64,000 bases of DNA, taken from the NCBI RefSeq assembly GCF_056746865.1, contig NZ_CM163382.1; one strand, 5' to 3'. How positions within the stretch are numbered: the first letter of the stretch is position 1; each line of letters begins with the position of its first letter. This document shows, one piece after another, positions 21,821 to 25,380 of the stretch. The position numbers and the translations under genes were made by a program. The notes beneath the pieces were generated by a model that saw only the letters and a program-made list of their open reading frames with translations, was not told the DNA's origin and did no database searches.

Positions 21821-22516
21821 TCAGCCAGCGGATGAAAACGCATCTATCACCTTGTGATCGACACCTTCATTCTCCCCCGCCAGTTCGGCACTGAGCTTCG
21901 CCATAAACTCGACTAAAAAATGCGCGTTGTGCTGCGCCAGCTGCTTGCCTCTTGCGGTTTGCATGGTTTGCGGTAGCTTCAGCAACTTAGTCTGGAAATG
22001 ATCCAGCGCGTAGCGTTTATCATCAAGCGGGCGATGCTGTGCGAGCGGATCTTCACCATCAAACAGCGCCACGCCCAATGCCCCTGAAACGGCAAACACG
22101 CGCGCCAGGCCAATCGCTCCCAGGGCTTCCAGCCGATCTGCATCCTGGACGATTTTAGCTTCCGTGGTTAAGGGGGCGATTTGCGCGCTGAAACTGTGAG
22201 CGGCAATAGCATGACAAACGGCCTCAATTTTCTCCGCCGGAAATTGCACGAACTCTTCACGGAGCAGGCGACGCGTCTCTTCTGCTGCCAGGATTGAAGA
22301 ACGCTGCCTTTGCGGATGATTTTTCGCCAGGCTCACAATATCGTGAAAATAACAGGCGGTTAAAATCACCAGCATATCGACGTCGTCATCTGCCGCCAGC
22401 TTCTGTGCCGTAGCCCAGACGCGGCGAAAATGACACACGTCATGGGCCGCGTCCTGGTGCTGATGATGGTTTTTCAACCAGTTTTCGAACTGTGCCTGCC
22501 AGTGTTGTAAGTCCAT
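21821..22516 (-). CDS. yedJ: HD-domain phosphohydrolase YedJ
   Basis: 231-aa ORF with HD motif. Confidence 0.9.
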
Positions 22517-22555
22517 ACGCGCTCCGTTGCCAAAGAGTAGCCACCTTAGCAGTTT

Positions 22556-22921
22556 TTATTCATAGCGTCTGCTACGTGCGGGACGAGGTCGGGTGTACCA
22601 GGCAATGCTGCCTAACAATGCCCCGACCAGAGCCATAAATAAAAATCCGACCAGTGCCCCTAACCACTTTCCCGCGGTAGAGCCTAAATCGCTTTCAAAT
22701 CCCGACACGGGGGCATCGGGGATCCGGCTCATCACCCAGATGTAACGCGCCATTGCCCAGACGAAATAGCCACACCATGTATAGAAAGCCCACAAAGCCA
22801 GTTTGCCGCCAGGGCTGCGAGAGAGTCTCTCTTCCATCTTTGTCGAACCGTATTCCATTTTGAGATAACCCGGAAAATTCAGACTTAGTACTATTATGTG
22901 ATAAAAGTCACATTTTTCCAC
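22556..22921 (-). CDS. yedR: Inner-membrane protein YedR
   Basis: ORF 22556..22939; start probably GTG 22921 or ATG 22858; two TM helices. Confidence 0.75.
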   Translation of the reverse strand: MEKCDFYHIIVLSLNFPGYLKMEYGSTKMEERLSRSPGGKLALWAFYTWCGYFVWAMARYIWVMSRIPDAPVSGFESDLGSTAGKWLGALVGFLFMALVGALLGSIAWYTRPRPARSRRYE

Positions 22922-24229
22922 ATTGGATGAGCCAGTCAAGACTCAATCATTTTTTGAACAAATAGATAAATTTTGCGCAACGGCAGTGAATACAGGAAAA
23001 ATCGTTTTGAGCGATTTTATTTATCTTTGATATCGGCTTTATTAATTCATTTAATCAATATATTAGCACTGATTACAATTATACCTTTTTATTATTCTGT
23101 GTCATGATGCTTCCGTTATTAGCCTTTTATCGTCTTGTTTATATTTTTTGGGCCGGCATGATGCCGGCTTTTTTTTATGCCTTCATTAATGTGCGCCTGA
23201 TCACACCAGCCGTTTGGCGCAACAATCATTGATACCCCCTATGTTTCCGCTCAACTCATAACATATTGATATACATTTATAATTTTCATGAATATTTATA
23301 TTTAGAATTCATAATTCTGAATTATATTAAATAGATTAGAAACATTTTGAAATCTTTTAAATACATTTGTTACATGTAATCCTTAAAATAAAATGAACTT
23401 CATAGAATAGTATCCAAATGTGCTTTTTTTGGATAACGGCACTTATTGATATATTCATGAAGATTATAATCACAAGGGAATACATAATGAAAAGAAAAGT
23501 TCTGGCAATGCTGGTCCCGGCGTTATTAGTTGCTGGCGCAGCAAATGCGGCTGAAATTTACAATAAAGATGGCAATAAAGTTGATTTCTACGGCAAGATG
23601 GTTGGCGAACGCATCTGGTCAAATACTGATGATAATAACAGCGAAAACGAAGATACCTCCTATGCTCGTTTCGGTGTTAAAGGTGAAACCCAAATCACCA
23701 GCGAACTGACTGGTTTTGGTCAGTTTGAATACAACCTCGACGCCAGCAAGCCCGAAGGCTCTAATCAGGAAAAAACCCGTTTAACCTTCGCAGGTTTGAA
23801 ATATAACGAGTTAGGATCTTTCGACTATGGTCGTAACTACGGTGTTGCTTATGATGCCGCAGCTTATACCGATATGTTAGTTGAATGGGGTGGTGATTCC
23901 TGGGCTTCCGCTGACAACTTCATGAACGGTCGTACCAACGGTGTTGCAACCTACCGTAACTCTGATTTCTTTGGTCTGGTTGATGGTCTGAATTTTGCTG
24001 TGCAATATCAAGGTAAGAACAGCAATCGTGGCGTTACTAAACAAAACGGTGATGGCTATGCGTTGTCTGTAGACTACAACATCGAAGGTTTTGGTTTTGT
24101 AGGTGCATATAGCAAATCTGATCGTACTAATGAACAAGCTGGTGACGGCTACGGTGATAACGCTGAAGTGTGGTCATTAGCAGCCAAGTATGATGCAAAT
24201 AATATCTATGCAGCGGTAATGACTCCAAC

Positions 24230-24733
24230 TTATTGATAGTGTTTTATGTTCAGATAATGCCCGATGACTTTGTCATGCAGCTCCACCGATTTTGAGAACG
24301 ACAGCGACTTCCGTCCCAGCCGTGCCAGGTGCTGCCTCAGATTCAGGTTATGCCGCTCAATTCGCTGCGTATATCGCTTGCTGATTACGTGCAGCTTTCC
24401 CTTCAGGCGGGATTCATACAGCGGCCAGCCATCCGTCATCCATATCACCACGTCAAAGGGTGACAGCAGGCTCATAAGACGCCCCAGCGTCGCCATCGTG
24501 CGTTCACCGAATACGTGCGCAACAACCGTCTTCCGGAGCCTGTCATACGCGTAAAACAGCCAGCGCTGGCGCGATTTAGCCCCGACATAGCCCCACTGTT
24601 CGTCCATTTCCGCGCAGACGATGACGTCACTGCCCGGCTGTATGCGCGAGGTTACCGACTGCGGCCTGAGTTTTTTAAGTGACGTAAAATCGTGTTGAGG
24701 CCAACGCCCATAATGCGGGCAGTTGCCCGGCAT
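24230..24733 (-). CDS. insB: IS1 InsB (expressed as InsAB' by -1 frameshift)
   Basis: 167-aa ORF overlapping insA; A6C slippery run at about 24668..24676. Confidence 0.93.
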
Positions 24734-24927
24734 CCAACGCCATTCATGGCCATATCAATGATTTTCTGGTGCGTACCGGGTTGAGAAGCGGTGTAAGTGA
24801 ACTGCAGTTGCCATGTTTTACGGCAGTGAGAGCAGAGATAGCGCTGATGTCCGGCGGTGCTTTTGCCGTTACGCACCACCCCGTCAGTAGCTGAACAGGA
24901 GGGACAGCTGATAGAAACAGAAGCCAC
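24652..24927 (-). CDS. insA: IS1 InsA
   Basis: 91-aa [26 protein letters not shown]... Confidence 0.93.
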
Positions 24928-25380
24928 TGGAGCACCTCAAAAACACCATCATACACTAAATCAGTAAGTTGGCAGCATCACCCTATGCAGCAATGATGTA
25001 CGGTGAAACCCGCAACATGACCGTTTTGGCTAATGATCATTTTGCAAATAAAACCCAAAACTTTGAAGCTGTTGTACAGTATCAGTTCGACTTCGGTTTA
25101 CGTCCGTCTTTAGGCTACGTATATTCCAAAGGCAAAGATCTTTATGCTCGTAATGGACATAAAGGTGTTGATGCTGACCGCGTAAATTATATCGAAGTTG
25201 GTACCTGGTACTACTTCAATAAGAACATGAACGTCTACACAGCATACAAATTTAACCTGCTGGATAAAGACGATGCAGCGATTACCGATGCCGCAACTGA
25301 TGACCAGTTTGCAGTTGGTATCGTCTACCAGTTCTAATCAGCCAACGCGCCGCGGCGTGTTACTGTAAAACATAACACTA

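Follow-up and report, generated by a model that had tools for sequence, protein, structure and literature searches.

The hairpin and 42-codon open frame between drpB and a yedS-type porin gene of Escherichia coli map to the known small RNA gene rseX

Introduction

The small RNA RseX was first found as a multicopy suppressor of the essentiality of RseP (Douchin et al. 2006, as relayed in PMC8313858), and the same secondary account credits it with repressing ompA and ompC in a manner dependent on Hfq (Douchin et al. 2006 and Chen et al. 2002, via PMC8313858). As summarised there, 5′ RACE suggested a primary transcript, with a sigma-70 consensus upstream and a Rho-independent terminator (Douchin 2006/Chen 2002, via PMC8313858). 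Under laboratory conditions the native RNA escapes detection in wild-type K-12; delta-hns strains give discrete Northern bands of ~91 nt and ~75 nt, and strong de-repression is seen by RNA-seq in hns/stpA mutants (PMC8313858). An ompA-gfp reporter is repressed by RseX, and fimB and ihfB are both bound and repressed by it (PMC8313858). For fepA, the last ~40 nt of the RNA (RseX+52) are sufficient for repression, which is impaired by a mutation in the terminator loop (PMC11979758). Dependence on Hfq has been reported in both studies (PMC8313858, PMC11979758).

RseX resembles the enterobacterial sRNAs MicA, MicC, MicF, RybB and OmrA/B, which likewise depend on Hfq and repress porins. They are short primary transcripts that combine a single-stranded seed with a U-rich tract, a G+C-rich terminator hairpin and a U-tail, and they repress mRNAs of outer-membrane proteins at the translation-initiation region (PMC8313858). 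It shares no sequence homology with them, however, and it is under silencing by H-NS/StpA, not under induction by sigma-E or OmpR (PMC8313858).

Here we analyze a locus within a 64,000-nt stretch of E. coli DNA (contig NZ_CM163382.1 of RefSeq assembly GCF_056746865.1), referred to below as the window. The original prediction, made from the letters of the window, pointed to a small hydrophobic open reading frame (ORF) with an embedded hairpin, and took the pair as a hint of a small unannotated transcript or protein. We show that the hairpin and the ORF almost certainly lie at the locus of rseX, the known gene of a 91-nt Hfq-dependent sRNA, and that the ORF is an incidental by-product of it.

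Results

Identity of the locus

An Rfam scan of positions 22500-23600 returned a + strand match to RF01401 (“rseX Hfq binding RNA”) at 23086-23175 with a score of 97.7 bits (E = 5.6e-14), where the gathering score of the family is 50 bits. The match is full length, spanning model positions 1-94 of 94. Matches to RyhB (23.1 bits) and Esr41 (19 bits) were rejected, as both are far under their gathering scores and align to the generic terminator only. The window from 23040 to 23260 is 100% identical over 221 nt to MG1655 2033603-2033823, and the MG1655 reference annotation has the ncRNA rseX (b4603) at 2033649-2033739, where it is flanked by drpB and the yedS pseudogene. This identity places rseX in the window at the position given in Table 1.

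Compared with RseX of MG1655, the sequence and its flanks, the length of 91 nt, the position between drpB (yedR) and yedS, the terminator hairpin and the U-tail are all the same. There is no difference in the RNA; the differences lie around it, in non-K-12 surrounding DNA and a porin gene that carries an IS1 element. Every sequence-level hallmark of RseX is found here, from the covariance score, the identity to the reference and the genomic position to the terminator with its preceding U-rich tract. The expectation that a terminator in this place betrays a small independent transcript was correct, and the transcript is a known one.

Among the matches listed, RefSeq genomes of E. coli annotated by PGAP, K-12 derivatives included, mostly have no feature under the rseX match, and the ncRNA rseX is annotated only in the curated NC_000913.3 record.

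Table 1. Positions of rseX, its parts and its neighbours in the window
Feature	Position	Strand	Basis or remark
drpB (formerly yedR)	22556-22858	-	gene left of rseX
Candidate -35 of RseX, TTAATC	23051-23056	+	17-nt spacer, 3/6 consensus matches
Candidate sigma-70 -10 of RseX, TACAAT	23074-23079	+	inferred from sequence; last base 7 nt before annotated +1
rseX (b4603), 91-nt regulatory sRNA	23086-23176	+	Rfam RF01401 and MG1655 identity
RseX 5′ part, most variable	23086-23115	+	holds ATGATG (23104-23109) and a weak stem-loop (Rfam structure line)
42-codon ORF	ATG 23104 to TGA 23230-23232	+	chance open frame
Core UUAUUAGCCUUUUAUCGUCUUGUUUAU, single-stranded	23116-23142	+	alignment, duplex prediction
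U-rich tract	23143-23151	+	T6 at 23144-23149, just upstream of terminator
Terminator stem-loop GCCGGCA/UGA/UGCCGGC	23152-23168	+	scan, folds, alignment
Poly-U tail, T8	23169-23176	+	RseX 3′ end
yedS/OmpC-like porin gene	ATG 23488	+	downstream of rseX, same orientation

Genomic setting

As originally described, the hairpin lies between yedR and a porin gene that are divergently transcribed; the two are separated by 629 nt of 30% G+C. The order drpB-rseX-porin is the same in 12 E. coli loci and is complete in four of six species-representative loci, three of which have hchA past the porin gene. One locus (L004) reads rseX-porin-hchA, its drpB side being beyond the sequence covered, and that of Citrobacter amalonaticus S646 (L007) reads yedJ-drpB-rseX-porin.

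The window is not from K-12: between 21000 and 24016 its identity to MG1655 is 94.6%, with 17 gaps in 3 kb, in contrast to the 100% identity of the 221 nt around rseX. Strains such as SE11 and D2 match a 651-nt query (window 22850-23500) at 99.8% identity. Further downstream, the yedS-type porin gene is interrupted by an IS1 element of 768 bp (24215-24982). The element has terminal inverted repeats of 23 nt and encodes InsA (24652-24927) and InsB (24230-24733) on the - strand; a 9-bp target duplication, CTATGCAGC, occurs at 24206-24214 and 24983-24991. In MG1655, yedS has no IS at the corresponding site and is a pseudogene for other reasons.

Conservation across the RNA

The 221-nt stretch occurs in 4879 of 5426 complete E. 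coli genomes with 88-100% identity. The K-12-type allele, with a T8 tail and an intact ATGATG, is represented by about one in four complete E. coli genomes, which reach 99% identity or more over this stretch. For comparison with the window we used 18 homologues, of which 12 are E. coli loci spread over the 88-100% identity range and six are species-representative loci from a pattern scan (E. albertii, E. whittamii, two Escherichia spp., E. coli E69 and Citrobacter amalonaticus). The rseX scores of these six range from 70.9 to 95.2 bits, all over the gathering score.

Variation is very unevenly distributed along the RNA. The 5′ part is variable in 9 of 30 columns among 13 E. coli sequences. Of the 28 columns of the core, none varies within E. 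coli and two vary across Escherichia, and this includes third codon positions of the ORF. Likewise, the terminator stem-loop has no variable column in 18 Escherichia sequences. The U-rich tract ahead of it has indels of 1 nt at eight loci (L017, L012, L011, L006, L003, L005, L004 and L002), and the U-tail is T7 at another set (L019, L017, L015, L013, L012, L011, L009 and L008) and T6 at L016. Three loci (L017, L012 and L011) combine one additional base in the upstream tract with one base fewer in the tail. One-base variation in the tail or the tract could alter termination efficiency or Hfq binding. The terminator and the preceding U-rich tract are present in the sequence, and their role in binding Hfq is predicted. 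By analogy with Hfq-dependent sRNAs generally, we take the U-rich tract together with the U-tail to be the Hfq-binding 3′ module.

The C. amalonaticus S646 locus provides an rseX homologue outside Escherichia (L007 1944-2040, 70.9 bits), also between drpB and a porin gene, with a 7-nt insertion before the terminator. In its terminator the outermost G-C pair is replaced by A-U through changes on both sides, such that the stem is kept, and the loop is UUU instead of UGA. The altered loop is the element reported as important for fepA repression (PMC11979758).

The invariant core is likely the seed that pairs with the translation-initiation regions of targets. When local duplex prediction was restricted to -30 to +12 of ompA and ompC, RseX nt 37-50 (window 23122-23135) paired with ompA -23 to -7 at -17.2 kcal/mol, and nt 30-43 (window 23115-23128) paired with ompC -15 to 0 at -16.1 kcal/mol; shuffled RseX performed as well in 24 of 500 and 39 of 500 cases, respectively. 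Both predicted duplexes cover the Shine-Dalgarno regions and fall nearly wholly in the core, with the ompC-pairing stretch beginning 1 nt upstream of it. These predictions are consistent with pairing of the core to the ompA and ompC initiation regions, and the shuffles lend this modest support. A whole-length prediction, of RseX nt 1-64 against the full ompA and ompC 5′ UTRs, was dropped as uninformative, given that it gave duplexes no better than those of shuffled RseX (74 of 300 and 109 of 300 shuffles).

A terminator in one direction

The hairpin occurs between T-runs just as first reported. It is composed of GCCGGCAT (23152-23159), G (23160) and ATGCCGGC (23161-23168), with T6 upstream and T8 downstream. 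The minimum-energy and centroid folds of RseX both contain it, and the fold reaches 9 pairs (23150-23170). A terminator scan identified a single site, versus 0.4 expected, on the + strand only, with 9 pairs (6 of them G-C), a 3-nt loop and a T-tail. The hairpin with its T8 is the Rho-independent terminator of RseX and serves the + strand only.

The flanking T-runs had originally been interpreted as the mark of a bidirectional terminator. Such a terminator, or insulator, would stop transcription both ways between the drpB and porin genes. The T-runs do flank the hairpin on the + strand, and the perfect, G+C-rich palindrome can fold on either strand (-13 kcal/mol, z = -2.8 on the - strand). However, a bidirectional terminator needs one strand on which an A-run precedes the hairpin and a T-run follows it, and the upstream + strand flank here is T6GG, with no A-run. 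The - strand RNA reads hairpin-CCAAAAAAUA, and the stretch that follows the hairpin on this strand, CCAAAAAAUAUAAAC, has no U-tract. Since the T-runs on both sides belong to the + strand and the - strand offers no U-tract, and the scan is positive on the + strand only, the bidirectional interpretation fails. Moreover, transcription of the flanking genes does not run into the hairpin (drpB heads away and the porin gene starts downstream), so there is nothing on the - strand to terminate. We consider the chance that this is a bidirectional terminator to be negligible.

The 42-codon open frame

So, is the open frame a gene? The ATG at 23104 and the open frame from it to 23232 are present as described, and the product is MMLPLLAFYRLVYIFWAGMMPAFFYAFINVRLITPAVWRNNH. 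The ORF starts at RseX nt 19, and while its first 73 nt are inside RseX, the remaining 56 nt are past the 3′ end of the RNA. The 91-nt RNA therefore holds 24 codons of this frame and zero stops, and the stop codon occurs 56 nt beyond the 3′ end (23176).

RseX could in principle be a dual-function RNA that, like SgrS/SgrT and Spot 42/SpfP, also encodes a peptide, in this case a single-transmembrane-like one of 42 aa from ATG 23104. Such sRNAs exist in E. coli. The frame is open over 42 codons, the peptide is hydrophobic (GRAVY 0.88), and its first ~14 residues (PLLAFYRLVY) are common to nearly all homologues. RseX shares with SgrS/SgrT, Spot 42/SpfP and AzuCR/AzuC an AUG-initiated open frame inside a base-pairing sRNA. 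In those RNAs the ORF ends within the transcript and the frame is conserved, whereas the RseX frame has no internal stop, no Shine-Dalgarno sequence and no conservation of the frame. Upstream of ATG 23104, no match to AGGAGG of at least 3 nt was found in the 20 nt searched, and the 25 nt before the ATG, TTATACCTTTTTATTATTCTGTGTC, have no purine run resembling a Shine-Dalgarno sequence.

The features of the frame that suggest a protein are those expected of U-rich sequence. T accounts for 51 of the 129 bases of the ORF and occupies the second position in 20 of 42 codons; the peptide is hydrophobic because the RNA is U-rich. An ATG-initiated ORF of at least 42 aa arose in 622 of 1000 dinucleotide-preserving shuffles of the 629-nt intergenic region, and the real region contains another 42-aa ORF and one of 36 aa. 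The 42-aa peptide has no match in Pfam, and its best NCBIfam match (12.2 bits versus a cut-off of 569) is noise. We found no link between RseX and a small protein in the literature searched, and RseX is not mentioned in the main text of a ribosome-profiling preprint (10.1101/511675). As RseX is silent in wild-type K-12, ribosome-profiling data sets are unable to show its translation.

None of the 18 homologues encodes the peptide of the window, and the products from the homologous start are 18, 27, 31, 36, 37, 39, 42 or 54 aa long. Frame changes are caused by a poly-T tail of T8, T7 or T6 and by the gain or loss of one base in the U-rich tract. The 18-aa product belongs to four Escherichia lineages, where the loss of 1 nt puts the terminator-loop UGA in frame. 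Codon 38 changes from TGG to TAG in several strains. The start itself is lost in some cases: four E. coli loci have ATC in place of ATG 23104, and Citrobacter has ATT ATC in place of the two ATGs.

In the Escherichia set there is no excess of third-position substitutions in the ORF; variable columns at codon positions 1:2:3 number 4:4:4 inside RseX and 10:10:11 beyond it. Across Escherichia, the ORF tail past the end of the RNA is variable in 0.54 of its columns, compared with 0.58 in flanking intergenic DNA. The only peptide segment common to the homologues, PLLAFYRLVY, is simply the translation of the core, without synonymous changes. Its coincidence with a stretch conserved at the nucleotide level, and the lack of synonymous changes there, indicate constraint on the RNA and not on a protein.

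The proposal of a small protein fails on this evidence: the frame lacks conservation and a Shine-Dalgarno sequence, and its stop lies beyond the 3′ end of the RNA. The original prediction had named a non-conserved reading frame as what would refute it, and this is what the homologues show. It had also suggested weighing conservation of the ORF against that of the hairpin; the frame ranges from 18 to 54 aa across the homologues, and the hairpin is invariant in Escherichia. The 42-codon ORF is a chance frame, not a gene, and we regard a dual function of RseX as extremely improbable.

Candidate promoters near the RNA start

For the transcription of RseX we tentatively propose the hexamers TTAATC and TACAAT (Table 1). 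This candidate promoter was missed by the promoter scan, its -35 being under the scan cut-off, and its -10 reads TTCAAT in two divergent E. coli loci and so is not kept in all strains.

The opposite strand has a near-consensus sigma-70-like site at 23105-23078 (ATGACA, 16 nt, TATAAT; 11 of 12 matches). The site overlaps the first 20 nt of rseX, its -10 (23083-23078) is back-to-back with the candidate -10 of RseX (23074-23079), and it points towards drpB, which starts ~210 nt further on. This site may represent the promoter of drpB, half of a bidirectional one, or a spurious promoter of the type common in AT-rich DNA bound by H-NS. Both of its hexamers are conserved across the Escherichia loci, a conservation not separable from constraint on rseX.

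Possible read-through towards the porin gene

The rseX and porin genes have the same orientation, in an order kept from C. amalonaticus to E. coli, which raises the idea that the RseX terminator is a leaky attenuator. Read-through would then extend 312 nt into the yedS-type porin gene, adding to the explanation of the locus as rseX and not replacing it. The variation of the U-tail between strains (T6-T8) could change the efficiency of termination. If it occurred, read-through would couple RseX, a repressor of OmpA and OmpC, to a quiescent alternative porin. On the other hand, the terminator is strong, with 7-9 G+C-rich pairs followed by U8, and Northern blots show discrete species of ~91 nt and ~75 nt (PMC8313858). 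Promoter-like sites for the porin gene occur at 23301-23394, downstream of the RseX terminator. We consider such leakiness improbable.

Discussion

The identity of the locus with rseX, the single direction of the terminator, and conservation at the level of the RNA but not of a protein are established directly. Hfq dependence, the targets, silencing by H-NS and the function of the loop are taken from the cited papers, whereas the promoter hexamers and the assignment of the seed are what we infer here.

Combining these, the locus most probably operates as follows. H-NS/StpA silence the AT-rich intergenic region, in which a weak sigma-70 promoter would give rise to a primary transcript ending at GCCGGCA-UGA-UGCCGGC with its U8. 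Together, the U-tail and the U-rich tract ahead of the hairpin would form the Hfq-binding 3′ module. The invariant core probably pairs with the translation-initiation regions of targets, leading to their repression, the published targets being ompA, ompC, fimB and ihfB; fepA repression reportedly requires the terminator loop. Within the variable 5′ part, AUGAUG opens a reading frame that by chance meets no stop until 56 nt after the RNA has ended.

One could also speculate that, in strains with the K-12-type allele, H-NS de-repression is accompanied by occasional read-through of the terminator. This could permit the translation of a lineage-specific hydrophobic peptide of 42 aa, a young proto-gene riding on an sRNA, and could also couple RseX to the quiescent porin gene. 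We think this very improbable.

RseX is already described, and there is nothing new in the RNA itself; with a described sRNA gene and a chance frame, the importance of the locus is small. It does, however, illustrate several points that bear on the reading of bacterial intergenic DNA. Two T-runs that flank a hairpin on the same strand do not amount to a bidirectional terminator. As rseX goes unannotated by PGAP, finding nothing annotated in such a region is weak evidence of novelty. In silico translation of U-rich, Hfq-dependent sRNAs easily yields “hydrophobic single-transmembrane peptides”. A terminator inside a divergent promoter region, in turn, is a good pointer to an sRNA gene.
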